A stretch of DNA of 55,896 nt, counting the filler, from Jimgerdemannia flammicorona (Eukaryota): NCBI GenBank assembly GCA_003990765.1. It is 3 parts of 3 records of this genome, joined end to end, with 100 filler letters (N's around TTAATTAATTAA, not from the genome) between each part and the next. Parts side by side here need not be neighbours in the genome. Positions count along the whole stretch, not along the records: positions 37,336 to 55,896 come from RBNJ01002178.1; 2 more parts are not named here. One strand, 5' to 3'. A program made the translations under genes and the position numbers. Below, in pieces: positions 3,196 to 55,896 of this stretch. The notes beneath the pieces were generated by a model that worked only from the letters and a program-made list of their open reading frames with translations, did not search any database and was not told where the DNA came from. The number at the start of each line of letters is the position of its first letter. The first letter of the stretch is position 1.

Positions 3196-3759
3196 GAGGT
3201 TTTGCAATTGTCCTCACTTTCTTCTCCTGAGTCCTCTTGAATGTTATTGGCCTCAGTTATCTCCCATCCTTGTTCCTTAGTTGTTTTGGCAAGTCCAAAT
3301 CTCATTTGCTATCTGAATGTTGGGATTTCTGTGAGCTGACCAAAGGTTGCATTGACCTTTTGTTGACTGAGGTCCTTGAAGATATCATACTTGAAGGTCT
3401 TGGTCTTGCGAAGCTTTTTTTCTTTTTCTCCTTCACTAGCTGGAGTGGTTCCTTGGATGATATCTTGAACTGCTTGCTCCAGCTCTGTATCTTGGTCCAT
3501 CTCTTTGGCTTGGCTTTCTGTGGCAGTTTCCATCCACTTTTCCACTGGGTTCTTCTTGGGTCTTCCTGGTGGTCTCTTGTAGGATTCTTTGCGAACATCC
3601 TTCTTGTTGGTCTGAACAGGATAGGCCTCCCATTCCTCTTCATCGGATTCTCTGATTTCTTCAAAGGTGATTGTATTGGCCTGCTCCTTGTTTTGTATAG
3701 TTGTTCTATGATGGAGTTTGTAACCAAGGTGAGAGTTTGGATAACCTCTTCGATTGGTG

Positions 3760-5050
3760 GTCTGGAGATTGCATCGGCAATAATATTTTCCTTGCCAGGG
3801 TGGTACTGGATTTCATAGTCAAAGTTGGTGAGGACTTTCATCCATCTGGCTTGCTTTCGAGAAAGGGTAGCCTGTGTCTTGATGTTGACTAATGACTTGT
3901 GGTCAGTCAATACAGTGAAGTGTGCTCCTTCTAGGTATAGTCACCACTTGATCAGAGTGTCTATAATGGCTAGCATTTCCTTCTCGTGAGTTGCATAGTT
4001 GATTTTGGCATCATTGAACTTGTGGGAGTGATAGGCCACAGGGTGTCCTTCTTGTATGAGTACTGCTCCAAGAGCTAGATCAGAGGCATCAGTAGTGACT
4101 TCATATGGTAGGGCAGGATTTGCTGCTTGAAGTACTGGAGTGGTTATCAAGGCATCCTTTAGTGCTTGAAAGGTGGTATCTTGCTCGGGTCTCCAATTTA
4201 CAAGATTGTTGAAATCTTTCTCTTGTTTCATGGTCTGGGGTTGTTCTTGTTTCTTGCTGTACTTGGTCATTTGGGTGAGGGTGGTAGCAATTTTAGCAAA
4301 GTTGGCAACAAATTGCCTGTAATAGTTTGCTAATCCTAGGAATAGCTGGAGGTCTTTCAGCTTCTTGGGTCTGAGCCAATCCTTGATTGCAGAGATTTTG
4401 CTGGGGTCCACTTTGATTCCATTTGGAGTGACAATGTGTCCAAGGAATTAAATTTCTTTCAGGAGAAATTTGTACTTGCTGAGTTTTGCAAAGAGTCAGT
4501 TTTCTTGGAGTTTCAGTAGTACTAGTTCAAGGTGTTCAAGATGTTCCTCTAGGGTTTTGCTGAAGACTAGGATGTCGTCAATGTAGACAACAATGAATTT
4601 GTCCAGGTATGGATGCAGAATAGTATTCATCAGTATCTGGAAGGTTGCTGGAGCATTAGTTAAGCCAAAGGGCATAACCAGGAACTCAAAGTGTCCATAG
4701 CGAGTTTGGAAAGCTGTCTTGTAGATGTCTTCTTCTTTTATAGCAATTTGCCAGTAACCATTTCACAGGTCAAAGGAGCTCATGAATTGTGGGTTTGTAA
4801 GTCTATCAAATATTTCATTGATCCTCAGAAGTGGGCAACAGTTCTTGATGGTCTGTTCATTGAGATCACAGTAGTCAATGCACATTCACAGGTCTCCTCC
4901 TTTCTTGACAACGAAGAGGACTGGTGCACCATAGGGTGATACACTGGGTCTAATGAATCCTTGTTCTAGTAGTTCATCGATTTCCTTCTTGAGTACATCA
5001 ATTTCTCTTGGAGACATGTGGTAGATTGACTTGAAGGCTGGTTTGGCATC
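3760..5050 (-). pseudogene. Reverse transcriptase and RNase H of family B
   Basis: [21 protein letters not shown] (about 4570-4590), FLGLANYYR, TDASDLALGAVL, EKEMLAI, TDHKSL, ARW and NIIADAISR; several stops. Confidence 0.95.
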
Positions 5051-5329
5051 TGGAATAGTCTTAATAGTATGGTCTACTGCTCATTTGGGAGATAGGCCTT
5101 TCAGGAGCTTCTTTGGGAATATGTCCCAGAATTTCTGGAGTAGTGGTCTGACATGGCTGTCAACTTTGGAAAAGTCTTCTTCAGAGTTCTTGGGTTCTCC
5201 TTTGGATGGATGGATGGAGATAGCAAAGAGAGGGCATTTCTTGGCCAATTTCTTGAGTTGTAGCTTATTGATGTGGGTGATCTTTGGTCCAGGGTCACTA
5301 GAGTTGAGTGGGTCCTTTTCGCCTTGTAG

Positions 5330-5690
5330 TTTGAAGTTGTGGCATCCTTTCTTGATGGTCAGAGAATGGTTTACCCAATCGATCATGGGGTTCTCTTGTT
5401 TTAATCATGGGGTTCCAAGGATGATTTCGTTATCAGGGAGTGGTATGATCTGGAGGGTAACATGTACTTGGTAGTTGCCAATTCGGAAAGGTAGATTGCA
5501 GACTTCTTTGCTAATAACATGTGAGGTTCCATCAGCTATAGCAACTGCTTGAGTTTGCTGTACTGGGGAGGTGAAGACCTTGAGTCTATTGGCTGTCTCT
5601 TCATTGATGAAGTTGCCTGAGGCACCACTGTCTATCATAATCTTGATAGATGCTCCATTGACAAAAGCCTTAAGGGTGAGCAGTTTGTCT
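5330..5690 (-). pseudogene. Aspartic protease of family B
   Basis: MIDSGASGNFI...EIILGTP in ORF 5405..5638. Confidence 0.92.
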
Positions 5691-5904
5691 GATCCAATGG
5701 TGGTGATTTCAGTTGTAGGAGCTTTCCTTCTTTTGGTTCTTCTTTGTGCCAGTTCATTGATACAAGAGAAGCAATATCAATCATTTGGGAAGAGTACATT
5801 CCAATGCCATGAGGGCATTGGCCACTTGGTACATATTCATCTTCGATCTTCTTGTAGAATTGTTCTTCTTTGCTCATGGTATGTTGGGCTAGGGCCTTGT
5901 TTGA

Positions 5905-6305
5905 TGAGCCATTTGGATCCTCGGATGGTAGGCAGTAATTCAAGAACTTCCTTGACTGTCAGGGTTGACTTGATTTTTTCGAATAGGATCTGGGCAATAC
6001 AGAAGCCAATAGGGATCTTGAAGGGTGTCCAACTGTGGTTTCGAATGAGGACAATGATTTCGCCTGTATAATCTTCATCAATGACTCCTCCTTCTACTGA
6101 GAGTCTTTTCAGTACTAGGCTGCTGGACAGCATATTCTTCCAACATGTCCTTCAGGGATTTGGATACTGATTCCTATGTAGACTTGTTTGACTTCTCGGT
6201 TGGAAACTGTAGCTTCTTTGGCTGCATACAGGTCATATCCAGCTGCTTTCTGACTTCCTTTGGTTGGGGCCTTAGCGGTTTGTCTTAACTTGACAAAGTC
6301 CAGTA
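5905..6305 (-). pseudogene. dUTPase domain of family B, between gag zinc knuckle and protease
   Basis: PTKGSQKAAGYDL, SSSLV, GGVIDEDYTGEI, IAQILF and RGSK; a frameshift near 6135. Confidence 0.92.
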
Positions 6306-6319
6306 TTCTTGTGGTCAGG

Positions 6320-8290
6320 TTGTTGAGGTGGTGCAGAGTGGTAACAGTTGCTCATATTGCTGTTCAGAGTTTTCAGTTAGGGCAGGCACTGGCCATGTGT
6401 TCTGTCTTTCAGCAATAGAAGCATACTCTGCTTCTTCAAAGTTCGTTCCTTTCGCCTTCAGTAAGTTTCTTGAAAGTACTTGGCTGGGTGAGTTCATGAT
6501 TTCTGAGTGTCCAAGAGGTAGATGTGGAGGAAGCTCGAGATGCTTCATGCTTGGGTTCTTCTTTCTTGGTCTAAGTCTTTTCCTTATTGTTAAATTGTCT
6601 TCAGGGCAGAATTGGTCCAGCTGTTAGGATTCGCTTGACCATGGTCTTGATTCTTGCCAGGCATCATTGTTGGTGATCACAACCAACTGGGCGGCCTTGT
6701 TCTTGGATTTTTCTAGTAAGCCATTCAGGCAGGACATCAAATAAATGGTCTGCTCTTGTACCATTTCATGCTTCATCATTGGCAATATATCCTAGGCCAA
6801 CAGTGTTCAGGAGTGACTCGAGTTTTGTACAGAAGGTTTCAAATTCTTCTTTGCCATGTATATCAAATTTGAGGTTGCGGAGTTTTACTCAAGATTCAGT
6901 GATCATAGTTTTACTGTGGTATTGAGCGATCATGAGTTGTTTGAGTCCAGGGGCTACAGGATGGGCTCCATATCCTGGGGCATTGTTTGCTGCATTCTGG
7001 GCAACTACTGTAGATCGGGTGTCCCATGTGGGGGGTTTTTCAGGAAGGGTTCACCACCATTCTTCAGCAGGTCCTTGGAAGAATGTAACAACTCAGCGGA
7101 CATAGGCTGTAGTGGTAGCAAAGAGTTGTTCCAGAGTATGGTCTTGATTATTTGTCAGAACGTGGTCAGCAACTCGCTCATTGGTCTATTGATTGGCTTC
7201 GAAATTGGTGTTAACTACACTAATGAAGCTTTGGACTTCTTGTGCAGTACCATTGAAGGTAGGTAGGCTCAGATTTTTGGTAGGTCAGGTCTGTTCAGCT
7301 AAGGCAGTAATAGTTGCTGCCATTATAGCTACCTGGGCTGTGAGATCTAGAATCTGTTGGTTTGCTATATTATTTACTGGAGGCAGTTGGACTACTGGTA
7401 GTAGTGTTACTGGTACTACTTGAGGTACTGGTGCAGAGTGTGATGGGGTTCTTTGGGTCTGTGTAAGCTGCTAGAGTAGTAGTTGTGGATCTGGAGTAAG
7501 GGCTTGATAGATAGCTGTTTGTTGCTGAGTAGGTATATTCTGTCCTGATGGAGGTACTTCTCCTTTGGTAGTATATCTGAGATCGAATTCACTGAGATAC
7601 TCCTCCTCTTCTTTGGTTTGGTCTCCGTGTAATTGGGTTTGCTCGGCGTCAAAGTAGACAGAATCAGTTATATATCTGATTTCAGATAGACTTAATTCAA
7701 AGTCAAGTTCAGGTTTGGTTTGGGTTTCAGATTCAGATAGGGCTGTAGCAGGGCCTACTTCAGGTTCGGAGTCAGGTAGTTGATGAAGGATTTCTCTTGC
7801 TTCTTCTTTAAGAATATGGTGGGCCTTGCTGTTCTGGAATCAGTAGTATAATGTGGTCTTGGTTCTGGTGCGGTGAAAGTCAGTAGAGTTGAGCCACTTG
7901 GCTATAGAGGCTTGGGCTTCATGAGGAACTAAGGCTAGAAAGACTGCTGCTGGTTGTCCTAGGTTGCTCAGATTTGTAGAGCTGACAAAACTCTTATTGA
8001 GAAGAGTAAAGAAGGCTTCAATAAGACCTTCTTCATCTTGACTTGCTGGGTGTAGTGTAAGGAGTTCAGTGAATAGGGTTTCACCTATTTGCTGGTTTAA
8101 CCTGAGTACTTCTTTCTTTGAATAAAGTTTGTCCCACTTGTTGCAGGTGTGAAGGTCAAATTGTCCTTGTACGTCAGGTTCAATTCTCTCCAGATTGTCA
8201 GATGGTTCAGGATAAATTCCAGTTCAGAGGTTGGGCTTTATACCAACTTGTAGGAATTCACAGAGGGGTTTGTAGTGGGGTGAGAAAGCA
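6320..8290 (-). pseudogene. Gag of family B with CCHC zinc knuckle and long N-terminal extension
   Basis: CFYC*KTEHMASAC at about 6384-6425 and capsid-like PTFNGTAQEVQSF near 7260. Upstream coding-like sequence runs toward the PBS; start position uncertain. Confidence 0.75.
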
Positions 8291-8312
8291 TCTTGAAGTA
8301 GAATTGGATTGT

Positions 8313-8327
8313 AAACTGCTGCTACCA
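8313..8327 (-). promoter_or_regulatory. Primer-binding site of family B (TGGTAGCAGC, initiator-Met-tRNA-like)
   Basis: TGG begins after a 3-nt ACT spacer following the LTR end at 8331. Confidence 0.75.
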
Positions 8328-8330: not shown

Positions 8331-10396
8331 TATAAGAGGGTTGCTTTTTAGAGTAACTGTTACATAGTTCTGGAAAGGTTTTCTGGATATTCTGGATGTT
8401 CTGGAAGACTGTTTTCTTATGGTCAAGATCAATTTCATATGGAGTACGTCCTCTATGCTTATTGATTTCAAGATTGGGTTGATGTCTCAACCAAAGTCCT
8501 TTTTCGAACTAGTTCTAGATGTTCAGAATTTTCCATATTTCAGGAAGTTCAAGAAACTAAGACCAGCTTAGTTGAATTGGCATATCACTGCAGACAATAC
8601 CCAATTAGGAAATTTTGTGAGGGGGTTAGGAGTGGAACCTAACAGGGAGTGGATTTACTTAAGAGTGGTTTGTGGGTTATTTGAATAGGTTTATTTGCTA
8701 TTTATGATATTGCTATACTAGGAGTAGTTGTATGAAGGGATATTGTGGAGAAGTATTCAGGAATGTTCTTGTGTGTTTGAGTTTGAGATTCTGAGGTCTG
8801 GGGGAGGTGGTATTTATACTAGTGAGGGGCTATCTGAACTATGCTGAATATGGATGTAGCACTAAGTGCCTTGCTGAGTCGGAATGCAGTCACATAGTAC
8901 AAGTGTGATCTGACATGTCAAGAGATCATCTGACTGCTGAGTCAGTTCACAGTTATGTCATACATACAATGCTAATCTAACTATACTATGACTGCTAGGC
9001 TATTTATGGGTTTAGGCACTATCTGGGTAGTCTTCGATGACATCACTATTGATTGCATCATCTCTGATAAAGTAGTCATCTAGGAAGAGTGGTTCACAGA
9101 TTACTTCTCCTTGTTCACTGAGGTAATAATATATTGGAACTTCATCACCATCTCACAGAATAGCATCATCTGTCTCATAGGCTGGATAAGGTGTTGGTGG
9201 ATGAAGGATGGATATGTTGTTTTCGCTTTCATTGGATTCGCTGTCTGCATACCTTCTATAGGTTATAATACTATAAGTTGCAGGATTGTAGTAAGCTGGT
9301 GGCTGTAGTTCATGTCACTCGTACTCAGGTGGTGAAGTGGTTGGTTCAATCTCGAGGGTTGTCTGGAGGTACAGGTTGTGTTCTCCGGTCTCTTCATTGT
9401 AGTTGAAGTAATCAGGAGTGAATGCAGGTTAGTATTCATGCCAGTGATCATTGTCCCAATAAGTTTCGTATACTGTTATGAATTGTTGTAAGTTCATCAG
9501 CAAGGTTGGCAGTATGATCAGGGTTGGCAGAAATCCTTGGCTAGAGGTCATATTGATGTCAGAGGGATCATTGTCTTCTGCTTCATCTTCATCGAAGTGG
9601 ATTATATCGTAGATATCCTTCATGGTGTATCCAACTTGGGGCATTTGCAGGATATGGTCATTGGAGTGTGGGAAGGTTCTGTCTGTGGTTTCGACATACT
9701 TGAGGTACTTGTGGTTGAGTTTTTGTATCATATCATCGATTTGGCCATAGGACAGAGTAGCAACCATTTCGCTGGTAGTAACTCGGAGATGAGGAATAAT
9801 AGTACTGACCTCATAGAAGAGTTCTCAATGTTTGCGGGCGATGAGCTTCTGATGTTGAGACATCTGGGTAATGTCTGTATCATGGTGGTGTTCAACCATA
9901 TCCTCCAGGAGGTGGCCGATCTGGTAGTAGCTTGAGATTTGTCCAATTCGGTGGGCCTCGCTAAGCATGTTCAGAGTGTTCCATCAGACTTCCATGAAGT
10001 AGAGGGGTGCCAGGCTATGGATATTCATGAGGGGCAGAGGGGGTGTGGCTTGGTTGACAATGGCATTCCAAATGTCAGTGCAGATACAGTTGTAGATCTC
10101 GGTGGTCATGTTTGTGTGTTTGGAAGTTTGTAGTTGTTATTTGTTTTGGTTCTCTGTTTCAACGCATCTCAGTGCTCGATATATGCATTTGATCCTGATT
10201 GATAAGATTCTGTTTGTATAAATCTTGTATTCTGTGACTTCGTATTGACTCAGCTTTATGCACTATGACTTCAGTTTGACTCAGCTTCATGATCAAGCAG
10301 GTGATTTCCAGATTTGTTCGGAGGTTGTGTGAGATTTCAGTAGCTTGTTCAGAGGGTGATGTGTAATTTCGGTGGCTTAGAGGTTGTGTACTTACA
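8331..10396 (-). repeat. Family B 5' LTR, 2066 bp
   Basis: Termini TGTAAG...CTTATA (eroded CTTACA). The same two boundaries appear in the copy at 49419-50536, which is preceded by a PPT; the left boundary also appears at 32130. TATAAATA at 8811-8818. Confidence 0.85.
9012..10109 (-). pseudogene. LTR (U3)-encoded accessory ORF of unknown function, 365 aa with five in-frame stops and no frameshift
   Basis: One frame from ATG 10109 (MTTEIYN...) to TAA 9012 (...EDYPDSA*). Internal stops are 4 TGA and 1 TAA, compatible with C>T or G>A changes. Includes ORF 9429..9767. Confidence 0.8.
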
Positions 10397-10680: not shown

Positions 10681-10683
10681 AGT

Positions 10684-11150
10684 TGTAATATAGCAGATGC
10701 TTACTCTTGAAAGTATGTCAGATTTCTGTATCTTGAAAACTTGACTGTTCTGACTCTCGCTGAGTCTCTTGAAGTTGCCAAGGAGGGTGGGTGAGTTCAA
10801 AGTGTATCTGCCTGCAGACTTACTAGTTCCTTTGCTATCTCTTTGCTTTGAACTATTTCGATCTGAGGTTTATTCACTTGAAGATACTGGGTTATTTATA
10901 CAAGTTTGCTAGCTATAAGATGGTTACTGGGTTATATGGCTAAGTTATGAGTCATTTAACACTTTGCAAAATATTTCACCAGTTGCAAAATGCTATACTA
11001 AATCGAGAAGCTCGATCTTACACTTTGCAAAATATTTAGCAAATGGCGGAATCGAGGACTGCTAACTATGTAGCTATACTACTTTGGGACTAGGTGTGAT
11101 CAAGTATCTATTCCCTATTTCCTTCTTCCAAATCTGGCTATACCATTACA
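10684..11150 (-). repeat. Family A 5' LTR, 467 bp
   Basis: TG...CA termini, highly similar to 53490-53942; TATAAATA and AATAAA on the minus strand near 10870-10900. Confidence 0.92.
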
Positions 11151-18568: not shown

Positions 18569-18668
18569 NNNNNNNNNNNNNNNNNNNNNNNNNNNNNNNN
18601 NNNNNNNNNNNNTTAATTAATTAANNNNNNNNNNNNNNNNNNNNNNNNNNNNNNNNNNNNNNNNNNNN
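18569..18668. other. Assembly gap with artificial TTAATTAATTAA linker
   Basis: 44 N + TTAATTAATTAA + 44 N, identical in form to 37236-37335. Confidence 0.97.
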
Positions 18669-20241: not shown

Positions 20242-20518
20242 ACAGCAACCGGCGTGGTTCTGTAGTAAGTCAAGAGATAGGTTCAGCCAAGCTATATATC
20301 AGCTGGGAAATCAAGCAATAAGATGTGCACCGAAACAACGGCGCAGCATCATTCGTAATCGCCCCCAACGGAAGTTACACAGTCACACACCGATCACTCT
20401 ATCTTTGGCATTTGTCAGCGTGCGGTCCTGTAAACTGTAATGTATAAAGCCCCGCCCATTCTTTCCAACAAACACAACAACCCTCCCACCCCCTACCCCC
20501 TACCCCAAATTACACACC

Positions 20519-29593: not shown

Positions 29594-29794
29594 GGTTTGC
29601 ATGGTTTGCACGGTTTGCACGGTTTGCACAGTTTTGCACGGTTTGCACGGTTTTGCACGGTTTTGCACAGTTTTGCACGGTTTGCACGGTTTGCACGGTT
29701 TGCACGGTTTGCACGGTTTGCACGGTTTGCACGGTTTGCACGGTTTGCACGGTTTGCGCGGTTTGCACGGTTTGCACGGGTTGCATGGGTTGCA
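29594..29794. repeat. 9-bp tandem repeat (GGTTTGCAC)n
   Basis: Read directly; about 22 units, a few of them 10-bp variants. Confidence 0.95.
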
Positions 29795-31519: not shown

Positions 31520-32130
31520 CATATCATCAATTTGGCCATAGGTCAGAGTGGTAACCATTTTAGTAATAGTGACTCAGAGACAGGGAATAAAGGTACTGTA
31601 CTTATAAAAGAGTTCTCAGTATTTATATACAATGAGTTTCTAATGTTGAGACATTTCAATAATATCTATATCATAGTAGCAGTTAACTATATCTTTAAGG
31701 AGATATCTAATTTGATAGTAGCTGGAGAGTTGTGTGATTCAGTAGGCTTTACTAAGCATATTCAGGACATTTAATCAGACTTCTATAAAGTAGAGAAATG
31801 CTAGACTATAGATATTTATCAGAGGTAAAGATGCTATGGCATAGTTGACAATAATATTCCAAATATCAACATAGATATTGTTATAGATTTCAGTAGTCAT
31901 TACTAGATATATATTTGAGAATTATAGTTATTTGTTTGTTATGGTTCTCTGTTTCAGTATATAATATATCTGATATATATCTCTTTGATTTTAATTGATA
32001 AGGTTCAATTTTCATAAGTCTTATATTCTGTAACTTCAAACTGACTTAGCCTTGTAATCTTACATATAATTTCTAGATTTGTTCTAAGAGTGATGTATAA
32101 TTTTGATAACTTAGAGGTTGTGCACTTATA
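31520..32130 (-). repeat. Family B LTR fragment (U3 start and N-terminal part of the LTR ORF), heavily mutated
   Basis: Colinear with about 9730-10396; ends at the same terminus (CTTATA at 32130). Confidence 0.85.
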
Positions 32131-35900: not shown

Positions 35901-36824
35901 AGTACTACAACCTAAGATCTTAAAAATAAAGAAGCTAGAGAAAATAGAAAGAAAAAGGAAAGGATTCAGATTTATAAAAAGAGATGTTTTTATCAGTATT
36001 AAGATTACTAAATTAGACTACAAGAAGGAGAAAATCACAGATAAGTATAACTATACTATTGGAAATAAATTTCCATTTAAGAAAGAACTCAAGAAGCTAT
36101 TGCATAAATTTAAAGATATCCTCATCACTAATTTCAAAGATATCAGAGAAAAGACACTACACTACTGTTGTGATATAGATATAGAAAATACCAAACTAAT
36201 CTACTAAAGAACAAAACCAATTCCACTAGCATATCAGAAATGACTCAAAGATGAAATTAAGTAGATAGAAAAAGCTAGTATTATTAAGAAGACTATTAGC
36301 CCATAGTCCTTATCAATTATACTAGCTCTGAAAAAAAGAAGTAAGCTAGGAGAATTTACTCTAAGACTCTATACAGACTACAAAAAACTCAATGAGATCA
36401 CTAAGAAGAAATACCAATTATTACTACTTATCAGTGACATCCTAGTGATATTAGAAGATAAAGCACAATATTATACCATCTTAGATTTATACTCAGAATT
36501 CTATCAAATTAGTCTCACCAAGGAGGCTAGTGAAAAGTCAGTCTTCATTACTCTAGATAGAATCTATATCTATTTGGAAATACTATTTAGAATATACAAT
36601 ACCCTAGCAAGCTTCTAGAGAATGATGAATAAGATCTTCTGAGAAGATATGAGAAAATAGATAATGGTTTATATAGATAATATAATTATATTTAGCAAGA
36701 TAGCTAAGAAATATCTGAATTATATCTATTAAATCTTACAGAAACTGAGAGAGTATAGTCTATTTATCAAGCTAAAGAAGTATAGTTTGTAGAAATTGAG
36801 ATCTTCTACCTGAGATATATATAT
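32926..36824 (+). mobile_element. Family A copy, heavily C>T/G>A mutated: LTR (about 32926-33399), PBS, gag, PR, dUTPase, RT
   Basis: Reverse-complement similarity to 10397-11150 and 1744-3705; RT remnants LDLYSEFYQI and MVYIDN. Left LTR boundary approximate. Confidence 0.88.
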
Positions 36825-37235: not shown

Positions 37236-37335
37236 NNNNNNNNNNNNNNNNNNNNNNNNNNNNNNNNNNNNNNNNNNNNTTAATTAATTAANNNNNNNNN
37301 NNNNNNNNNNNNNNNNNNNNNNNNNNNNNNNNNNN
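37236..37335. other. Assembly gap with artificial TTAATTAATTAA linker
   Basis: Same 100-nt spacer as 18569-18668. Confidence 0.97.
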
Positions 37336-40300: not shown

Positions 40301-40608
40301 TTCTCAGCCAACAAGGAGGTATTGAGGTGCCAATATCCAGGTCCATCTCCACTCCCCCTGAAGCTACCCTGTCCCAACAGCTTTCAGTAATCAGACTATA
40401 GGTACCACTCAGCCTTCAGCGATTTCCAAACATCCAAACCCCAGCAGTCCACCATTAGCACCCAGTCAATTCTCATTCCCAGACCACTTATCCAGTATAT
40501 ATATATCCTCTTATCTCTCCAGAACTCCCTGCCAGATCCACCAGAGAGCTCAGCCTTTCTACTTCCTCCTATATCTCCAAACCCCCACTCCTACCTCTAG
40601 CCCCCTGC

Positions 40609-40667
40609 CCTCTATCAGTCCTTTTTTTTTTTATTTTTTTTTTTATAGTCACTCCTCCATCAGTCCT
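40609..40667 (-). mobile_element. Extremely 5'-truncated LINE insertion (AGTGACTAT + poly(A)) with 14-bp TSD
   Basis: CCTCTATCAGTCCT / CCTCCATCAGTCCT flank the insert; TTTATAGTCACT matches the LINE 3' terminus at about 41392-41402. Confidence 0.8.
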
Positions 40668-47257: not shown

Positions 47258-50200
47258 TCCACCTCTTTCACCTTATTGACCTCATATCCTTCCTTCTCCA
47301 AGAAAACTACAAGTACCTCTACCTTCAGGGCCTCTATCACTCTATCTCTATATAGGATTCACATCCAATAATTATCACTTATCATCCTCAGGTCCACTTC
47401 TCCCAATTCTTCAGCCACTAAGTTATTCATCATCTGGCACATCTACTGTAGGTTTCCCACCTCCTTCCTCTCTGGAGTTATCAGTCTTCCTTCTCCCAGT
47501 ATTGAGATATCAGCCCCCATACTTGTAGTCTCATCCCACTCCTCCTCTGGAATATCTATTAATTTATTCGCATTAGCCATCACTACCCATTTCCCTTTCA
47601 CTATCTTAGAAACTCCAAAGTGTATTTGCTGAGTACCTCACATTGGTACATCCTCTGCTGCCCAGTCTCTTGAAGCAGGTCTCTGTCTGATAAAAGGAGG
47701 AGTATCTTCTCAGACTTCAAATATACTATCCTCATATGGGTCCTTACTTAGCACCTTCCTGATCTCCACCAGATCCTCCTCTATCTTCTCTCTACTTTTA
47801 TTGATCCAAATACTCACTTTGGTACCCTCAGCATCTTCAATTTCACTAGCATCCCTCTTTGCCTTCTCTCCCAGGTTTGCCAGCAGCTCCCTCTGCCTCT
47901 TATACTCTTGAGACCTCTCCCATATCCTCTTATCAATATAATATACCTTCTATCTATTATCTCCAAATATATTAACTCTATATATGTCTTCCAAGCCTTT
48001 GTCCTCTGCTCTATCACACTACTCAGCTCCTCCAGTGCCTCTAACAAATTCTCTTTCTTCTCTTCACTCTTCTTCACCCTCATCACCTTGTATAAGAAAG
48101 CCCTCCACACTATTACCAAAGACCAATCTTGAGCCTTCCCAGTAGCCTCTCTCTTAGTCAAATGAATCTGGACATCAACTCCCAGTCTGAAAAGAGATTC
48201 CTTCCCAAACCCAAAAACCAATATTGACTACCTCTCCATACTTGGCCATGACTTCCTCGACTCTCCTCCTAGTCTCTATAGTAGTTACTATAGGAACTCC
48301 TTTCACTAGAAGTTGTACCACCCTGGGGTCCTACCTCAAGCAGTACATTATCAGAATACTCACCTCTCTAATAGTTAACCTAATCTTCAGTATATTCTCT
48401 AATAGCCCAGACTCCTCAAAGCCCATCTCTACTCTTTCCAATCTCCTCAGAAACTTCATAGATACCACACTAGCCACCTACTTAGCAATCAGCCCCAAAA
48501 CTATTTTCACTATCATCACTAAGCCCCAGAAGTACAAAGTAATCATGAACTCTAAGATCAACTTCTTGAGTAATGGGGCCACTACCAGACCTATTACACT
48601 ATCCATCAGGTCTCTCATCCTCTTAGGCCCTATCTTCCCAGCCCTACTATCAGCAGTCATGTTTGGATTTTTTTCCAGATTGCCAGTTACTACTTCATCA
48701 GCAGTTATATCTCCAGCTACTACTCCACCAGCTCTTCCACTCAACACCCCCAAGAGAGCCCCTCCTGGCCCCCCAGCAGCAGCTTTCTTCTTACCCCCCT
48801 ATAGCTATCTATCCAGTCTAGCTGCCTGACTCCTCTGCCTGATCATCTCAGCAAAACTCATCCTCTTCCCCTCTGTCTGTGCCATATCTCCTCCTCTACT
48901 GCTACCAACCCTCCTTCCTTCTGACAAGGTGCTCAGTATCTCCAATCCTGCTTCCTGATCTCTCCCCACATACTGCCAGCCAAATGTACTAGGGCCACCC
49001 TGCCCAATACACTCTGTAGAACTCTGATTCAAGAATATATTCTTAAGACATTTCTCTAAGAATGATATAAAAGTAGGTAATATAATATTTGTATAATGTG
49101 AGATATATCAGGAAGAGATCATATCTATTATATATAATTAATATTTTAAGAAGATAGAATATATTATTCATATCTGTCATCTTGAATTTCTGGCATAGCA
49201 TCACTTTTATATCATTAATCTCACTTATTATTCTGATCAGAATAATACCATGGATCTAAATTTCTAGATATACTATTCCTATATAAATTGGCCTCATAAT
49301 GCTTAAATCTGTTATCTAAGAAATATTTGTTAATTTTTTGATTCTATAGTCTTACTGCTTATTTGATACTATAGAGATCTTTATAGAGTTTATATATAAG
49401 CTCCTTTTGCTCATTATCTGTAAGAGGATTACTTATAAAAGTACTATTACATAGTTCTGGAAGGGGTTTCTAAAAGTTCTGGATATTCTGAAAGACTATT
49501 TTCTTTTAGATCAAGATCAATTTTATATAAAGTATATTCTCTATATTTATTGATTTCAAGATTGAATTAATATCTCAACCAAAGTCCTTTTTTGGACTTA
49601 TTCTGAATATTCAGGATTTTCTATATTTTAGGAAGTTCAAAAAACTAAGACCAGCTTAGTTGAATCAGTATATTGCTGCAGACAATATCTAATTAGAAAA
49701 TTTCATAATAGGGTTAGGAGTAGGACTTAATGGGGTGCAGATTTACTTAAGAGTAGTTAGTGGGTTATTAAATAGATTTATTCACTATTCATGATATTGC
49801 TATACTAGGAGTAGTTATATGAAGAGATATTGTGGGGAAGTATTTGGGAGTTGTATTTGGATCTGTTTAAGTCTGTTTAAGTCTAAATATATTTGATATA
49901 CTTGTGGTTGAGTTCTTGTACCATATTGTCAATTTGGCCATAAGATAGGATAACAATCATTTTAGTAGTAGTAACTTGAAGATAAAGAATAAAGGTACTG
50001 TACTCATCAAAGAGTTCTCAGTATTTATGGGTGATGATTTTCTGGTGTTAAAACATCTGGATAATATCTGTATTGTAGTGGTATTCAACTATATCTTCTA
50101 GGAGATAACGGATCTGATAGTAGCTTGAGATTTGTCCAATTCAGTGAGCTTTGCTGAGCATATTCAGGGTATCTTATCAGGCTTTCACAAAGTAGAGAGG

Positions 50201-50758
50201 TGCTAGGCTATGGATATTTATGAGAAGCAAGAGAGGGGTAGTTTAGTTGACAATGACATTTCAAATATCAGTATAGATACAGTTGTAGATCTCAGTAGTT
50301 ATATTTGTATATGTTTAAGAGTTATAATTGTTTATTTGGTTTGTTATGGTTCTCCATTTTGATATATCTGAGTGCTCAGTATATATATATTCAGTCTTAA
50401 TTAGTAAGATTCTGTTTATATAATTCTTGTATTCTATGACTTTGAGTTAACTCAGCTTTGTGATCTTGCATGTAATTTCCAGATTTGTTCTAAGAGTAAT
50501 ATGTAATTTTGATGACTTGAAGGTTATATACTTATAACTCTTCTCTTTTTAGTTTTGAATATCCTCATCGAGCTCTTCTAAATTTGATCTAGTATTGTTA
50601 CACCATTTGGATAGTCAAAAGTCCAGTAATATTCAAAGTGGTATGCTCATAGTACAGTTGTCTAATACAATAGATTTATATATTAAAAAGTTGTATATTT
50701 GATACTATATACCAGAAGTAATTCTGATATCATTTACTAATGGAGAATTTCCTCTAAG

Positions 50759-51124
50759 TAGTGCTCCCAAATGAGTCGAATCAATTCGAATCAAATCGAA
50801 TGGGGATTTTTCAATTCGAATTAATTTGAATCAAATCAAAAGTCGAATCAAATTGAGGGTCTGATTCAAACCCTAATTTTCAAAATGCAATAACTCAGCA
50901 TAAACTCATCTAAATCTAATGTACTTTAGCTTGTTAGAATCACATTAATACGGTGAATCTAACAAGCTAAAATATGTTAAATTTGGATGAGTTTTCGTCG
51001 AGTTATTACATTTTGAAAATTAAGGTTTGATTCAATTTGAATTGAATTGAATTGGACCCTTGATTCGATCGAATCGATCGAGTTTGGGCCAAATTCGATT
51101 TGATTCAATTTGTTGAGAGCACTA
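50759..51124. mobile_element. hAT-type MITE, 366 bp, largely palindromic
   Basis: TIRs TAGTGCTCCCAA / TTGAGAGCACTA with an 8-bp TSD CCTCTAAG on both sides. Confidence 0.93.
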
Positions 51125-51354
51125 CCTCTAAGGAATCTTCTTAAATATCTATGCCTTATTTCCCACTAGTGATATAGGGAGAATAGGCTAGCTTTTAGTT
51201 TTGCTATTTTTCTAGAAGATCAGTATTCTTTTGTCTTATCTTGCTGAGTTCTTGATTTTATTTGTAATAATTTTAAGGGTATTTGATGTTTAGAAGGAGT
51301 AATATATAGTATAGACTAATAGGTATTGGAGTATTTGGTTTCAGTTGTTCAAAG

Positions 51355-51460
51355 AATTATATTTTTAAACTAAGTTAGTGGTATTCTGGAGATTAGTTTT
51401 AGATTCTCATATCACATTATGGATCAGATAATCTTTCTATTTGATAAGGTATTCTGGATG
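51355..51460 (-). pseudogene. Chromodomain remnant of family B integrase
   Basis: EYLIK*KDYLIHNVI*ESKTNLQN matches the chromodomain pattern EYLVKWKGY...TWEP..NL, with both Trp codons mutated to stops. Confidence 0.75.
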
Positions 51461-53489
51461 GTTCTTGTGGCCATATTTATTAAGGTCTCAATAATCAATA
51501 CACATTTGTAGGTCTCTTCCTTTCTTGACAACAAAGAGAACTGGTATATCATATACATAGTAATATACTGAGTCTAATGAATTCTTATTCTAGGAGTTTA
51601 TCAATCTCTTTCTTGAATGCATTAATTTCTCTCAGAGATATATAGTAGATTGACTTGAAGGTGGGCTTGATATCTGAGATAGTCTTGATGATATAGTCTA
51701 CTACTCATTTAGGTGGTAGATCTTTTGAGAGTTTCTTTGAGAATATGTCTCAGAATTTCTGAAGTAGGGGTCTAACATAGCTGTTGACTTTGAAAAAGTC
51801 TTCTTTGAGGTTTTCAGGTTCTCCTTTGGATAGACAGATAAAGATAGCAAAGAGAGAGCATTTTTTGGACAATTTCTTGAGTTGCAGTTTGTTGATATGG
51901 GTGATCTTTAATCTAGAATTACTAGAACTGAGTGGGTCTTTTTCTGTCTTACAATTTGAAATTGTAGCATTCTTTCTTAATGGTCAGGAAATGGTTTACC
52001 TAGTCAATTATAGGGTTCTCTTACTTTAACCATGGAGTCTCAAGGATGATTTCATTGTTAGAAAGTGATATGATCTGGAGAATAATATGTACTCAATAGT
52101 TACTAATTTAGAAGAGTAGATTGTCAACTTCCTTATTAATAATATATGAGTTTCTATTAGCTATAGCAACTGATTGAGTCTATTGTACTAGAGAGGTCAG
52201 AAACTTAAGTCTGTTGGCTGTTTCTTCATTGATAAAGTTGTCTGAGGCACTACTGTCTATCATAATCTTAATAGATACTCAGTTGACAAAAGCTTGGAGT
52301 ATAAGTAGTTTGTCTGATCCAATTGTAGTAATTTCAGTTGTAAGAGCTTTTCTTCTGTTAGTTCTTCTTTAGGCCAGTTCATTGATACAAAAGAAGCAAT
52401 TATTGATTATTCAGAAAGAGTATATTCTAATACTATAGAGATATCAGCCACTTGGTACAAATATATCTTTAATTTTCTTATAGAATTATTCTTTCTTATT
52501 TATGATAGTTTGGGCTAAGGTCTTGTTTGATGAGCCAAATCCTTTAGATCCTTGGATGGTAGGCAGTAGTTCAGGAACTTCTTTGACTATCAGAGTTGAT
52601 TCAATTATCTTAAATAGGATCTGAGCAATATAGTAACCAATAGAAATCTTAAATGGTCTAATTATGATTTCAGGTGAGAATAATGATTTTACTTATATAA
52701 TCTTCATCAATGACTCCTTCTTTTACTGAGAGTTCTTTTAATGCTAGACTACTGCAATAGTATATCCTTCCAATATATTTTTCAGAAATTTGAATACTAA
52801 TTCCTATGTAGACTTGCTTTATTTCTCAGTTGGAAACTATAACTTCTTCAGCTATATATAGATCATATCTGGCTACTTTTTGGCTTCCTTTGATTAGAGC
52901 TATAGCTGTTGTTCTTAACTTGACAAAGTCTAGTATCTTGGTAGTCAGATTGTTGAGGTGATGCAGAGTGATAATAGTTGCTCAGATTGCTGTTTGGGAT
53001 TTTTAGTTAGAGCAGACACTGACTATATATCCTGTCTTTTAGCAATAGAAGTATGCTCCACTTCTTTGGAGTTCATTTCTTTCTCCTTCAGTAAGTTTCT
53101 TAAAGATATCTAGCTGGGTGGGTTCAGAATTTTGAGATATCCATGAGGTAAATATAGAGAGAGCTTGGGATACTTTATATTTGAGTTTTTCTTTCTTAGT
53201 CCAAGATTTTTCCTTATTATTAAATTATCTTCAAGGCAAAATTAGTCTAGCTATTAGGATTTACTTGACTATAGTCTTGATTCTAGCCAGATACTATTGT
53301 TGATAATCACAATCAATTGAGTATTCTTATTCTTAGATCATTCTTATAAGCTATTCTGGTAGTACATCAAATAAATAGACTACTCTTATGCCATTTTGTA
53401 CTTTATCATTAGCAATATATCCTAGGCCAACTGTATTCAGAAGTGACTCAATTTGTACAGAAGGTTTCAAATTTCTCCTTGCTATATAT

Positions 53490-53942
53490 TGTAACATAGC
53501 AGATGCTTACTCTTGAAAGTACGTCAGATTTCTGTATCTTGAAAACTTGACTGTTCTGACTCTCACAGAGTCTCTTGAAGTTGTAGGGGAGGGTGGGTGA
53601 GTTTGAAGTGTATCTGCCTGCAGGCTTACTAGTTCCTTTGCTATCTCTTTACTTTTGAACTATTTCGATCTGAGGTTTATTCACAAGTTTGCTAGCTATG
53701 AGAGGGTGGCTAAGTAATAAATGAGTCATTTGGACTTTGTCGAAACATTTGGACAATGTCTAAATGCTATACTAAATCAGGATATTCAATTTGGATAATG
53801 TCTAAAATTTAGACAATGTCTAAGAATTTAGATAATGTCGAAATCGAGGACTGCTAACTATAATGCTATACTACTTTGGGAATGGGTGCGATCAAGTGTC
53901 TATTCTCTATTTCCTTCTTCCAAATCTGGCTGTACCATCACA
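53490..53942 (-). repeat. Family A 3' LTR, 453 bp, preceded by PPT (AGGAGGAAGT)
   Basis: TG...CA termini, similar to 10684-11150; inserted into family B gag. Confidence 0.92.
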
Positions 53943-53979
53943 ACTTCCTCCTGAATGGATGGTCTCATCCCTGAGGCAT

Positions 53980-54441
53980 CTATTCAAACTCCCAGGCTTC
54001 AACAGTCTGTATGGTCTTGTACTGTGTGATTTGCTGCATGACTGTTTCCCAATGATGTCTTCTCACTTTCTCGAAGTCAGTAGGAGTTACTCCTCTCAGG
54101 TGGTCTATCGCTGCTTCATCTTCTCTGAATAACTTGTGGATCCTTTTGGCAATAGTGATCTGTAAGTGGGAGAGTTGACACTTGGCAATCCAGTTCTCCT
54201 TGGTCTTTGCTGGATCCTGATTGAGCACCTGTCCAAGCTTGAAGTACTCTTGGAATTCTGCCTGATATTGATAGGCTCTAAAGTGTGAGATCCAAGAGAG
54301 ATGAGTCTGCACAATACTCTGAATATCCTTATAGTATGGCTCTATAGTCAGAGGCTTGGTGGTGTGCCATTGTCTTTTGATGGCTCTTTGGGCAGCACTA
54401 GTGATCTTGAGTGCCATTGCAGTACTTTTGTTACTGGCCAT
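53980..54441 (-). CDS. Family A ORF3, 153-aa accessory protein of unknown function between integrase and 3' LTR
   Basis: Uninterrupted ORF. Its ATG overlaps the last integrase codons (CATGGCCAGTAA) and it ends just before the PPT. Confidence 0.8.
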   Translation of the reverse strand: MASNKSTAMALKITSAAQRAIKRQWHTTKPLTIEPYYKDIQSIVQTHLSWISHFRAYQYQAEFQEYFKLGQVLNQDPAKTKENWIAKCQLSHLQITIAKRIHKLFREDEAAIDHLRGVTPTDFEKVRRHHWETVMQQITQYKTIQTVEAWEFE

Positions 54442-55896
54442 GATATTTCTTGAGTTGGTTTCAGTGAATGGTGGTGGGGATTATTGTGCCTAAGGGTTTT
54501 CATAGCCAAAAGGTAGTCCCTTTTATATCTTGCACAAGGTAAGGTCCTTCCCACTTGGGCTCCAGTTTTCGTGACCATGAAGCTTCTACCATATTCTGAT
54601 ACACTAGGACTTTGTCTCCTATCTTGATAATCTCCAAAGGCTTGTGGGTCTTTTCCACATTCCTCCATTGTAGTGTCTGTGCCTTGGTTATATAATCCTC
54701 AGCCTTTTTCCTGATTTGGTGTAGTTTCCATATTTCTATGTCCACATGTTTCCATACAGCATCTCTATTGGATGATAGGGTTCCTTGAGAACATTCTTCT
54801 CTGAACAGCATTTCTTGAGGGGTAAAGTGGGTGCTTTATGATCAGATATCCTGGAGAGCAGATAATGCTATTGGCAGATAGTGATCCCAGTTCTCGTAGT
54901 TATCACAGATCTTGGCGATAACATTCTTGAGGGTCTTGTTGGTCCTTTCTACTTGTCCATTTCCTTGGGGTGATAGGCTGTGGTTCGAATGTGCTGGATC
55001 TTGTACTTCTTATAGAGAACCTCAAAGAGCTGGTTCACGAATTCTGTTCCTCTATCTGTGGTTACTTGTGTTGGGGTCTTGAATCGGCAGATGATTTCCT
55101 TATGGAAGAAATCAGCGATTGACTGTACATTGGCTTCCTTGAGGGGTCCTGCTTCTATCCACTTCTATGATGACAATGATGTATCGGTTACCAGTCAGGG
55201 TCAAGGGTAGAGGGCTGATTACATCCATTGCTATATGGGCAAATGGTACTGGTTCTATGTGTGCTGATCCTGGGGTTTGATTCTGTTGGTCTAGTTTCTG
55301 TTTCTGGCATTTGTCGCATATTTTGATGAATTGTCTGATATCTTCCTCCATCCCTGGCCACCATATTGTTCTTCTTGCCTTGTCATATGTATTCGTTCCT
55401 CCTAGATGGCCAAGTTCGTGTACTGATTTCATCACTTGCTCCTTCTTGTGTTCTGGTATAACCAGTAGTTTTCCTTTCTTCAGTGTTTCTCTGTCAGTTT
55501 CGAATTGTTTCCATGTCCTGTTGATAATCGTTTTTGTCCATTCTTCCAGATGTTGGGACATCTTTCGCTGTCCCAGGTATGTGATGATTCTATAGTAAAG
55601 CTCCTTATTCATGATTGATTTGTTGGTTGGAGGTAGTTCGAGGTGTCCATGAAAAAGCATCTGTATTGGAATTTGTTCTTCCAGAGCGGTGCACAATGGT
55701 TACATCATAGGCTTGTAACTTCATTATCCATCTGGCATAGATTCCCTTGGGTTGTCCAGTTGTCAGTAACCAGGTGAGAGCTGAGTGGTCCATCTGGATG
55801 GTGAAGTGTCTTCCGGCCAGATAGTAGTGGAACTTTTCCACAGCCCAGATGACTGCAAGGCATTCCAACTTGTAGGACTCATATTCTTTTTCAGCC
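54431..55896 (-). pseudogene. Family A pol 3' part: RNase H and integrase (HHCC, DDE core, GPY/F), no chromodomain
   Basis: ECLAVIWAVEKF, DHSAL, ARWIMKLQ; HELGHLG...WWPGM...CDKCQ; DVISPLP, TDRGTEF, VERTN; PKWEGPY. Contains stops and frameshifts. Confidence 0.95.

Follow-up and report, generated by a model that had tools for sequence, protein, structure and literature searches.

An intact open reading frame (ORF3) occupies the env position of a decayed LTR retrotransposon in Jimgerdemannia flammicorona, and a second element represented in the same stretch of DNA carries an ORF inside its LTR. This raises the question of what ORF3 is and whether the two ORFs encode related proteins, as an earlier note on this DNA had claimed. 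The whole stretch (55,896 nt including filler, in three parts, hereafter the window) was therefore analyzed. The element carrying ORF3 was termed family A, and the following parts of it were recognized:

53980..54441, minus strand: ORF3, intact, 153 codons plus TAG, under purifying selection in comparison with the related locus L001
54398..55612, minus strand: integrase remnant comprising the H2C2 zinc finger and the core; its ORF is separate, lies in the +1 frame and starts at the ATG of ATGAATAA
55605..55895, minus strand: end part of the RT-RNase H ORF; the element continues past the window edge
53944..53952, minus strand: polypurine tract core AGGAGGAAG, after the ORF3 stop and ahead of the LTR
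53489..53942, minus strand: 3' LTR, TGTGATGG...GTTACA, 454 nt, abutting internal sequence of family B
10683..11150, minus strand: A-like 5' LTR, then the PBS-like ACTTGGTGCC and a gag start to ~10397, where a family B element is nested

At the 3' end of family A the ORF3 stop is followed by 36 nt holding the polypurine tract (PPT) core AGGAGGAAG, which ends 1 nt ahead of the LTR, and by the LTR start TGTGATGG at 53942. This LTR start recurs at 11150 with an unrelated upstream flank, and the PBS-like ACTTGGTGCC follows the LTR at 10682. The same PBS-like sequence was found after the LTR in L001, the sole locus obtained from 305 pattern matches in a metagenome scan with an A-type query. LTR ends of the TG...CA type, a PPT and a primer-binding site agree with family A being a Ty3/Gypsy element, and its PR-RT-RNase H-integrase order is that of Ty3/Gypsy (Metaviridae). 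L001 encodes, in order, protease, dUTPase, RVT_1, RT_RNaseH, Integrase_H2C2 and rve domains; in the window, RNase H was located at 55608-55895 and the integrase zinc finger at 55115-55699. A chromodomain is absent from family A, as the L001 integrase yielded Integrase_H2C2, rve and zf-H2C2 only. The window copy sits within family B internal sequence at 51461-53488.

The integrase of the window copy is broken by five in-frame stops and, in comparison with an intact relative, has lost 11 nt and 1 nt in two deletions. This corrected one point of the earlier note, in which the ORF3 ATG was said to overlap the integrase stop by 11 nt: that stop is a premature TAA of the decayed copy, and the natural integrase stop lies 44 nt past the ORF3 ATG, resulting in a 44-nt overlap. 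In L001, 83 nt extend from the opening of the ORF3 frame to the integrase stop. The integrase ORF is in the +1 frame relative to RT-RNH and ORF3 is again in the +1 frame relative to the integrase, and ATGAATAA at the RNH/IN junction is kept in the window copy as well as in L001.

ORF3 of the window contains neither stops nor indels, as had been described. Its frame is open merely from 13 codons ahead of the ATG, which stands in the context ATCATGG, with the A at -3 and the G at +4 shared by the window and L001 copies. ORF3 was also predicted to be open in other copies of family A, and two full-length copies from outside the window were indeed both open, namely P0002 (153 aa, 78% identical to ORF3) and the copy at 5795-6253 in L001 (65% identical). 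Between window and L001, changes at the three codon positions numbered 39/28/86, with a pN of 0.217 and a pS of 0.80, and the other two frames gave pN/pS values of ~1.0 and ~1.4. Because of this codon-position pattern and the difference between pN (~0.22) and pS, ORF3 is a selected coding gene. In the explanation that we favor, and as a whole consider rather probable, it is a genuine accessory gene, under selection, of a dUTPase-bearing Ty3/Gypsy retrotransposon.

The earlier note had further stressed that ORF3 is unbroken next to a pol with stops. This is correct as an observation, but it was rejected as a sign of selection on the window copy: ~2.2-2.6 lesions are expected per 153 codons, and a P(0) of ~0.07-0.12 is not significant. 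Also rejected was an overlapping cis-element upstream of ORF3. Synonymous divergence there is 0.32-0.34 versus 0.46-0.51 in two larger integrase segments, a reduction which corresponds to ~7 changes per compared segment and is not significant.

Despite its position ORF3 probably does not encode Env, in line with what had been proposed. In a Kyte-Doolittle(19) profile the hallmarks of Env (signal peptide and transmembrane anchor) were absent; the maximum was 0.19, without a hydrophobic segment, and the N-terminus is polar. ORF3 matched no Pfam family at E ≤ 10, and likeness to fusion glycoproteins was found neither there nor in viral models at E ≤ 0.001, searched with a structural model of pLDDT 60.8. 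No resemblance to gag or pol was detected, in the window or in L001.

The element with the LTR-borne ORF was termed family B. Its parts in the window are:

9429..10109, minus strand: LTR ORF, copy 1, of 226 codons and a terminal TAA, interrupted by two in-frame TGA codons that start at 9986 and 9827; the protein ends in ...DNDHWHEY
8331..10396, minus strand: 5' LTR, copy 1, TGTAAGTA...CTTATA, then the PBS-like TGGTAGCAGCAG and gag
3755..8327, minus strand: internal region with PBS-like site, gag with CCHC knuckle, dUTPase, protease, RT and RNase H; integrase and 3' LTR are missing
49419..50536, minus strand: 3' LTR, copy 2, after the polypurine tract AAAAAGAGAAGAG (~50538-50550), with a heavily decayed ORF (profile match 49886-50128)
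31520..32130, minus strand: partial LTR, copy 3, with the same 5' terminus and a decayed ORF
51461..53488, minus strand: internal sequence from the end of gag through dUTPase and protease to the start of RT, with 79% identity to 4841-6861 and family A inserted in it

The three B LTR copies have a T(G/A)TAAGT terminus in common, each with a different upstream flank, and copy 1 holds ~910 nt (8785-9696) that are missing from copy 2. The B ORF lies wholly within the LTR (10109-9432 within 10396-8331), 288 nt from its 5' end. It was found in copy 1, a 5' LTR followed by a PBS-like site, and in decayed form in copy 2, a 3' LTR preceded by a PPT, and is thus an LTR-embedded gene. ORF3 of family A, which ends 36 nt short of the LTR, is not; the earlier placement of the gene outside the LTR in A and inside it in B was therefore correct. 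Because the B gene is entirely inside the LTR, it is present in both LTRs and would persist in a solo LTR. Solo LTRs would be more than regulatory debris if the gene copy in the LTR is expressed. TATA-like stretches are located ~75-85 nt upstream of the B ATG and also within the final 400 nt of this LTR, and the earlier assignment of the ORF to U3 is an assumption. The initial 287 nt of the LTR held no integrase-derived remnant (best E 2.7), and no B integrase survives in the window, where 50537-51502 yielded no family in three frames.

The domain order of family A is PR-dUTPase-RT and that of family B dUTPase-PR-RT, and their RNase H regions are 34% identical. For these two reasons A and B are, judged by their sequences, different Ty3/Gypsy lineages, as the earlier note had suggested.

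To compare the two proteins, we started from the peptides on which the claim of homology had been based. Both are present as quoted: EYFKLGQ...HLRGVT in ORF3 and SYYQIGH...HLRVTT at ~9774-9944 (minus strand) in the B LTR ORF, the latter with an in-frame stop after ARKH. The pair had been chosen by eye from a 56-kb window, and a resemblance by chance or composition between two unrelated ORFs would gain support from the pairwise searches. In tblastn of ORF3 against the window the B ORF reached 22.3 bits (E 0.33, 17/59 identities, 29%) and was outscored by an unrelated stretch at 21578-21730. An E of 0.003, valid for that single comparison, was obtained by blastp of ORF3 against an intact B relative. 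In a Smith-Waterman shuffle test the real score was reached by 3 of 2000 shuffles, and for one A-type member the shuffle P was merely 0.028. The pairwise alignment-and-shuffling check that had been suggested thus had a marginal outcome. An earlier, shallower profile gave an hhalign probability of 45.6% only.

Deeper profiles argue against chance. When a profile of 19 sequences (A6) was searched against the six-frame translated window, the B ORF (9687-9941) was the sole strong non-self match (E 8.1e-8), followed by the second, decayed B copy (E 0.041) and by no further match at E ≤ 100. The real profile score was attained by none of 1000 shuffles. Since this search covered the whole window, it already corrects for the selection of the pair by eye. 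A profile built from P0010-type sequences only (a further subfamily, see below), without any window-derived sequence, detected both ORF3 (E 6.5e-13) and the B ORF (E 2.6e-5). Alignment of the A and B profiles by hhalign gave 90.2% (E 1.6e-6) over 140 columns, nearly end to end, with a B side consisting of two sequences, one of them translated across two stops. Start position, length and the C-terminal Trp motif also agree: in a MAFFT alignment the N-terminal Met of all three types falls within ~4 columns and the Trp-bearing C-termini are aligned. The A and B proteins furthermore fall in the same neighborhood of a protein-language-model atlas, in which the closest clusters represent families that are unnamed or unrelated and share <170 features. 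Taken together, ORF3 and the B LTR ORF are best regarded as distant homologues, a relationship that is not significant pairwise on the scale of the window and is clear with profiles; we consider coincidental resemblance highly improbable. One protein family is thus found in distinct dUTPase-bearing Ty3/Gypsy lineages, on either side of the LTR boundary, which is in agreement with the accessory domain shared by two lineages that the earlier note had envisaged.

As a further part of the explanation favored above, ORF3 would belong to a previously unnamed family of small proteins of ~130-230 aa that are predicted to be all-helical. At least three subfamilies can be distinguished: the A type, the P0010 type, known solely from short environmental contigs of up to ~7.9 kb, and the B type. 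All three have an equivalent start methionine, the common core ...EFQxYYxxG...TIAxRxxxLF...H[LIF][RK]G... and an acidic tail in which a tryptophan stands 3-4 residues before the C-terminus. P0010-type tails have 13-14 acidic and no basic residues in 37-39 positions, the B tail has 17 acidic residues, and the A-type tail is weakly acidic. This conserved acidic tail with its terminal tryptophan provides a concrete handle for a host partner. For A-type and P0010-type members the core has a pI of 9.5, 7.1, 6.9 and 8.9; for B the value is 5.4. As the core is not markedly basic, nucleic-acid binding is not favored. Hydrophobic segments are lacking in the A-type and P0010-type proteins (maximum KD(19) 0.19-0.74), and the long form of B has a hydrophobic stretch near its C-terminus (KD(19) 1.51).

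Members of the family are rare. Among 5.8 billion clusters, three queries retrieved 6, 1 and 11 relatives, and no longer or domain-bearing relative was present among 1.84 billion representatives. A 455-aa tandem-repeat protein, P0009, was discounted because its match (E 5.3e-6, 6 stretches) is inflated by repeats. The B, A and P0010-type alignments gave 80, 29 and 22 pattern matches in viral contigs, of which none was confirmed, and a scan of genome contigs likewise confirmed 0 of 66. No description of the family was found in the literature. It has no Pfam entry and hardly any representatives in protein databases, and naming it would help to annotate repeat-rich genomes.

The sharp fall in identity at the ORF3 boundary suggests cassette exchange. 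Such exchange would also suit a host gene or gene fragment that A and B acquired in separate events, or an exapted copy serving the host, and LTR elements frequently capture accessory ORFs and share them across lineages, as reported in the accessible portion of PMC5408684. However, all copies of known context lie in elements (window A, window B three times, and L001), the representatives searched included no longer or domain-bearing relative, and the elements that carry the window copies are decayed, with nothing that points to host-type conservation. A host origin is therefore very unlikely in our estimation.

Structure prediction and fold searches, which had been recommended for finding a DNA-binding or other fold, did not lead to a match. 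The AlphaFold model is all-helical with a mean pLDDT of 60.8 (10-residue block means of 58-84 over residues 31-110; a first structural model was poorer, with a pLDDT of 49.1). Foldseek with this moderate-confidence model gave a best E of 0.48 against the PDB and of 0.24 against BFVD viral models, and by sequence no PDB entry matched better than E 0.33. With VIA-align, 3 of 48,161 chains reached Z ≥ 5 and none Z ≥ 8, the best Z of 5.2 being under the noise level quoted for helical proteins. Helix-turn-helix candidates were KorB (Z 5.0, rmsd 2.3, 53 residues), ParB (Z 4.4, rmsd 1.8, 43 residues) and SopB (Z 4.3), scores that tie with many unrelated helical chains and are under the quoted noise level of the tool. 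In Pfam, the 19 members gave scattered weak matches with a best E of 0.01; no family was hit in more than 4 members and none above its gathering score. HTH_Tnp_Mu_2 matched weakly in 2 of 19 members (best E 0.031).

How the protein may be produced was deduced from the layouts. Those of A and B would differ solely in the position of the PPT, and hence of the LTR boundary, relative to the gene. If the B gene lies in U3, the A and B genes would both be the 3'-terminal ORFs of the genomic RNA. The two families offer a natural experiment on the way in which a gene of an element comes to be LTR-borne, a situation known from a few retroviruses. The ORFs of family A (gag-PR-dUTPase-RT-RNH, integrase and ORF3) would form a staircase of +1-shifted overlapping ORFs, an arrangement that suits termination-reinitiation or alternatively a subgenomic message. 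The +1 position and the overlapping frames (83 nt in L001), together with an integrase that is itself +1 to RT-RNH and has no chromodomain, could also be read as a C-terminal integrase extension, with ORF3 translated by +1 frameshifting as a targeting module that replaces the chromodomain. We regard this as unlikely, because the B homologue stands alone within the LTR, beyond the PPT and with a stop codon 10 codons upstream of its ATG, the start methionines of the three subfamilies coincide in the alignment, and the ORF3 ATG has the same flanking A and G in both copies. The protein would rather be made from its own ATG and not as an integrase fusion.

With regard to function, we tentatively propose a non-enzymatic adaptor or regulator, whose helical core would bind nucleic acid or an element protein and whose acidic tail, which contains aromatic residues, would recruit a host factor. 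Its likeliest role might be that of a transcriptional activator of the element's own LTR. We consider this functional assignment as a whole possible but doubtful. The conserved Trp-bearing acidic C-terminus would equally suit a protein acting in particle assembly, trafficking or cell-to-cell spread, as an adaptor that links the particle or the integrase to a transport or membrane factor of the host. A core that is not clearly basic, the hydrophobic stretch in the long form of B, and the precedent of small Ty3/Gypsy accessory ORFs with a transmission role and variable position (described in the available part of bioRxiv 10.1101/2025.03.14.642691) are compatible with such a role. Against it, A-type and P0010-type proteins have no hydrophobic segment, and no known trafficking or fusogenic protein was matched in Pfam, the PDB, Foldseek, VIA-align or viral models; we rate it as a weak possibility. 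More speculative, and in our view rather improbable in its full form, is a scenario extending the proposed regulator. Here the family would comprise trans-acting retroelement regulators, either activators or modulators of copy number or silencing, and in one lineage the gene would have been carried across the PPT into the LTR. Every such LTR, including the solo LTRs that recombination leaves, would be a potential coding unit acting in trans on the family, and expression in lineage A would occur by termination-reinitiation as the last step of the +1 staircase.

Several retroviral genes occupy comparable positions. The sag gene of MMTV is an ORF inside U3 of a betaretrovirus LTR and encodes a type II membrane glycoprotein superantigen; in betaretroviruses the dUTPase is located upstream of the protease. 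Like sag, the B accessory ORF is complete within the LTR and hence duplicated at both ends, and family B places dUTPase before PR as betaretroviruses do. Unlike Sag, the A-type and P0010-type proteins have no TM segment and resemble no viral model, and the host here does not belong to a vertebrate virus system. Foamy virus Tas/Bel1 and HIV nef are 3'-end retroviral regulators that reach into U3, and Tas has a DNA-binding part and, at its C-terminus, an acidic activation domain. The genes described here are likewise small and non-structural and follow pol, lying at the PPT/U3 boundary or across it, and a DNA-binding and acidic-tail architecture as in Tas may be surmised. They differ from Tas and nef in showing no sequence or fold similarity to them, and no env separates them from pol.

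Beyond animals and plants, hardly any accessory gene of an LTR retrotransposon has been characterized. In bdelloid rotifers, the accessible sections of PMC5408684 describe dUTPase-bearing, Ty3/Gypsy-like LTR retrotransposons with a third ORF after pol, of env-like, GDSL esterase, DEDDy exonuclease, coiled-coil or TM type. An ORF3 type can be common to unrelated retroelement lineages there, indicating modular exchange. Family A resembles these elements in its dUTPase, in the ORF3 after pol and in an ORF type common to lineages; it differs in that its ORF3 encodes a small helical protein without a known domain, and none inside an LTR is reported in those sections. In insects, sORF1 and sORF2 of MDG1-group Ty3/Gypsy elements encode ~70-110 aa under purifying selection and are located upstream of gag or downstream of pol depending on the lineage, according to the available text of bioRxiv 10.1101/2025.03.14.642691, where sORF2 and its relatives are termed 'sORF2/FAST-like' and proposed to be infectivity factors in cell-to-cell transmission. 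The ORFs analyzed here share with them the small size, purifying selection and a position that varies between lineages; in contrast to what is described in that text, they are longer, helical and shifted across the LTR boundary, and the A type has no FAST-like features.

Among fungi, the consulted part of PMC2864245 presents PosPlaTy3 of Postia placenta as a dUTPase-bearing Gypsy element of basidiomycetes, and some fungal Gypsy elements are drawn there with an 'add. ORF' of unknown function, which is mentioned there solely as an abbreviation in a figure legend. The dUTPase of fungal Gypsy elements is placed in that part at the N-terminus of pol, between PR and RT, or at the C-terminus, a variation that matches the difference in dUTPase position between families A and B.

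The surroundings of ORF3, the small gene 3' of the integrase in family A, comprise the following features:

53980-54441, minus strand: ORF3, 153 codons plus TAG
55605-55895, minus strand: end of the RT-RNase H ORF, 5' of ORF3 on the same strand
54398-55612, minus strand: decayed integrase with H2C2 zinc finger, 5' of ORF3
53942-53489, minus strand: family A LTR, ending in GTTACA

The ORF3 stop is followed by 36 nt ending in AGGAGGAAGT and by the LTR start TGTGATGG. The TG terminus recurs at 11150, behind an unrelated AT-rich upstream flank, and in L001, a near-complete family A element of 6479 nt obtained by a metagenome scan; the LTR end GTTACA followed by ACTTGGTGCC was likewise found at 10682 and in L001. 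ORF3 is therefore internal to the family A element, between integrase and polypurine tract, in agreement with the earlier note, which had placed the gene outside the LTR in this family. An 11 nt overlap of the ORF3 start with the integrase stop, which had also been proposed, involves a premature TAA and was discarded: the L001 integrase extends 44 nt beyond the ORF3 ATG to a TAG that the window shares. In both copies the RT-RNase H ORF ends with CAT GAA TAA, and the integrase ATG, within ATGAATAA, lies inside this end (window 55605-55612, minus strand; L001 4612-4619). The integrase of family A is its own ORF, in the +1 frame relative to RT-RNase H, and the junction could act either as a +1 frameshift site or, by stop-start overlap, through termination-reinitiation. 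RT-RNase H, integrase and ORF3 would form a +1 staircase of three ORFs, and the position of the ORF3 start would fit either termination-reinitiation or expression from a subgenomic message.

Among 5.8 billion protein clusters, a word-indexed search gave 11 candidates, including six ORF3 relatives (62-78% identity), one of them full length (153 aa) and five truncated by contig ends. When 1.84 billion representatives were searched exhaustively with a profile, five proteins were detected at E ≤ 0.001: three of the same subfamily, a tandem-repeat protein, which was left out of the family, and P0010, a distant ORF3 relative of 165 aa (E 2.9e-5). In L001 a single frame of 1281 codons spans gag, which has a CCHC knuckle, and the protease, dUTPase, RT and RNase H; the contig also encodes an integrase with one in-frame stop and an intact ORF3 of 153 codons. 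Differences between the window and L001 ORF3 fall on codon positions 1, 2 and 3 as 39, 28 and 86 (pN 0.217, pS 0.80), with pN/pS of ~1.0 and ~1.4 in the two other frames. The comparison argues that ORF3 is a real gene under selection, and the 153 aa relative and L001 are two full-length outside copies in which it is likewise open. The earlier contrast between an unbroken ORF3 and a pol with stops holds as a description, the window integrase having five in-frame stops and two deletions over ~405 codons; it carries little weight, because by our own arithmetic only ~2.6 lesions are expected in 153 codons at the integrase rate, with P(0) ~0.07, or ~0.12 once the lesion-free RNase H part is counted.

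Identity to L001 changes from 85-95% at the integrase C-terminus (54635-54456) to 62-68% within ORF3 (54456-53981), and pS is 0.80 in ORF3 and 0.46-0.51 in the integrase. From these values the ORF3 cassette looks either older than pol or exchanged independently of it. The 5' end of L001 (1-176) comprises the final 13 codons of an ORF3, a polypurine tract and an LTR start, which are nearer to the window type (54019-53842) than to the 3' ORF3 of L001 itself (6216-6391); this end reflects either a tandem array with a common LTR or two subtypes wrongly joined in assembly.

Both peptide strings quoted in the earlier note were recovered exactly, one in ORF3 and the other in the B ORF, the gene embedded in the family B LTR, at ~9774-9944 (minus strand) in a frame that opens with ATG 10109, closes with the TAA after 9432 and is interrupted by two TGA codons. 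At these two positions P0012, an intact B ORF relative of 128 aa (87% identical), has arginine. With ORF3 as tblastn query against the window, the B ORF gave E 0.33 and a chance match ranked above it; in blastp against P0012, ORF3 gave E 0.003 and P0010, end to end, E 0.002. The real Smith-Waterman score was reached by 3, 1 and 0 of 2000 shuffles for three family members, and by 79 of 2000 for a fourth. Pairwise similarity of ORF3 and the B ORF alone is thus not convincing, and the profiles decide. P0010 as query added 11 proteins of its subfamily. A profile of 19 sequences (A6), searched with hmmsearch against the six-frame window, ranked ORF3 first, followed by the B ORF (9687-9941, E 8.1e-8) and the decayed second B copy (49886-50128, E 0.041), with no further match at E ≤ 100. 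A profile built only from P0010-type proteins, without any window sequence, matched ORF3 (E 6.5e-13) and the B ORF (E 2.6e-5). In hhalign, 45.6% with an 8-sequence profile rose to 90.2% (E 1.6e-6, 140 columns) with a deeper one, and for each of three profiles all 1000 P0012 shuffles fell short of the real score. These results argue firmly that ORF3 and the B ORF are homologous, as had been claimed. Independent of the profiles is the agreement in a joint MAFFT alignment: across the A-type, P0010-type and B-type subfamilies the start methionine falls within ~4 columns, L104 and F105 never vary, and T96, R100 and H114 hardly do. In all three the C-terminal end is acidic and has its tryptophan 3-4 residues from the terminus (EAWEFE in A type, [DE]EWD[LV] in P0010 type, DHWHEY in B type).

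Three B copies (8331-10396, 49419-50536 and 31520-32130, all minus strand; copies 1 to 3) have the terminus T(G/A)TAAGT in common (10396, 50536, 32130), with a different upstream flank in each. Copy 2 is preceded by AAAAAGAGAAGAG and ends in CTTACA at 49419. Copy 1 ends in CTTATA at 8331 and is followed by ACT TGGTAGCAGCAG; next come a long gag frame, which includes a CCHC knuckle, and the dUTPase, protease, RT and RNase H. Copy 1 is therefore a 5' LTR and copy 2 a 3' LTR. The common terminus and the flanks place the B ORF within the LTR, its ATG 288 nt from the terminus, confirming that it is LTR-encoded. Copy 2 is without ~910 nt of copy 1 (8785-9696), and with them it lacks the C-terminal third of the ORF; we read this as a probable deletion in copy 2, because the copy 1 ORF ends with the tryptophan motif of the family. 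The position of the ORF in U3, as given in the earlier note, is putative: TATA-like AT-rich stretches lie ~75-85 nt 5' of the B ORF ATG, beside a duplicated 29 nt unit with TGAGTCA, and others in the final 400 nt of the LTR, along with AATAAA. The duplicated unit (10232-10291, minus reading, ~125-180 nt 5' of the ATG), single-copy in copies 2 and 3, contains in TGAGTCA an AP-1/Gcn4-type core.

The two carriers are different lineages, as proposed: the order is PR-dUTPase-RT in family A and dUTPase-PR-RT in family B, and RNase H identity between them is 34%. No chromodomain was found in family A, and the B integrase is missing from the window. Elements are nested within one another in the window: B copy 1 interrupts the gag of an A-like element (11150-10397, continuing at 3686-1756), and the ORF3-bearing A element is inserted into a second B element. 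Two more A-like fragments (33055-36695, plus strand; 1756-3686, minus strand) are 66-71% identical to L001, and neither extends to an ORF3 inside the window.

Genes borne by the LTR or overlapping U3 are familiar from retroviruses (MMTV sag, foamy virus Tas, HIV nef). Third ORFs common to unrelated lineages are described in a report on bdelloid rotifers (PMC5408684), and small accessory ORFs 5' of gag or 3' of pol, depending on lineage, in one on the insect MDG1 group (bioRxiv 10.1101/2025.03.14.642691). For fungal Gypsy elements, a variable dUTPase position is mentioned together with an 'additional ORF of unknown function' (PMC2864245). The literature searched gave no description of the ORF3 protein family. 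Our analysis shows a small stand-alone selected ORF that is common to separate lineages and lies before the PPT/LTR boundary in one and beyond it in the other. A shift of this boundary relative to the gene would convert the A layout into the B layout or the reverse, and expression would proceed from the gene's own ATG.

The family matched no Pfam family and no sequence relative in the PDB. AlphaFold (32 sequences) returned an all-helical model with a mean pLDDT of 60.8 (10-residue block means 58-84 over residues 31-110). A DNA-binding or other known fold was not recovered from it: Foldseek gave nothing above background (best E 0.48 in the PDB, 0.24 among viral models), and in VIA-align (best Z 5.2) ParB/KorB-type helix-turn-helix domains were level with many unrelated helical chains. 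Kyte-Doolittle analysis found no hydrophobic segment in A type and P0010 type, so that the stated absence of a TM segment in ORF3 stands. The long B form has, in its C-terminal part (9432-9530, minus strand), a proline-containing hydrophobic stretch, FLPTLIILPTLLMNLQQFI (KD19 1.51), 17 residues before the C-terminus, absent from the other types. Tails are strongly acidic with aromatics in P0010 and B types and weakly so in A type; A-type and P0010-type cores range from near neutral to basic (pI 6.9-9.5), and the B core is acidic (5.4). As to function, the weakest step of the analysis, we lean with low confidence towards an adaptor or regulator without enzymatic activity; with its helical core and acidic aromatic tail, the protein would most likely activate the LTR of the element. 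A role as trafficking or particle adaptor instead is about as likely.

Decay of the CpG-transition type was seen in the integrase (54398-55612), where three of five stops are TGA in place of CGA in L001, and in the B ORF (9429-10109), where both stops are TGA in place of arginine in the intact relative and arginine has become cysteine at two sites close to the N-terminus. This decay points to a host that methylates cytosines in repeats. Two adjoining open frames at 20434-21955 (plus strand) match the Major Facilitator Superfamily (21017-21955, E 1.7e-25), apparently the sole host gene in the window. Four 44-base N runs form two pairs (18569-18668, 37236-37335) at the position of the filler between records, and tandem-repeat arrays are located at 28200-28930 and 29593-29801. 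A third repeat family (37827-40619, 41874-44665, 16029-18558, 13558-16333, 44361-47146) consists of 2.8-kb direct repeats that are 71% identical and inverted copies at 71-78%, with an RVT_1 match at 42215-43222 (minus strand).
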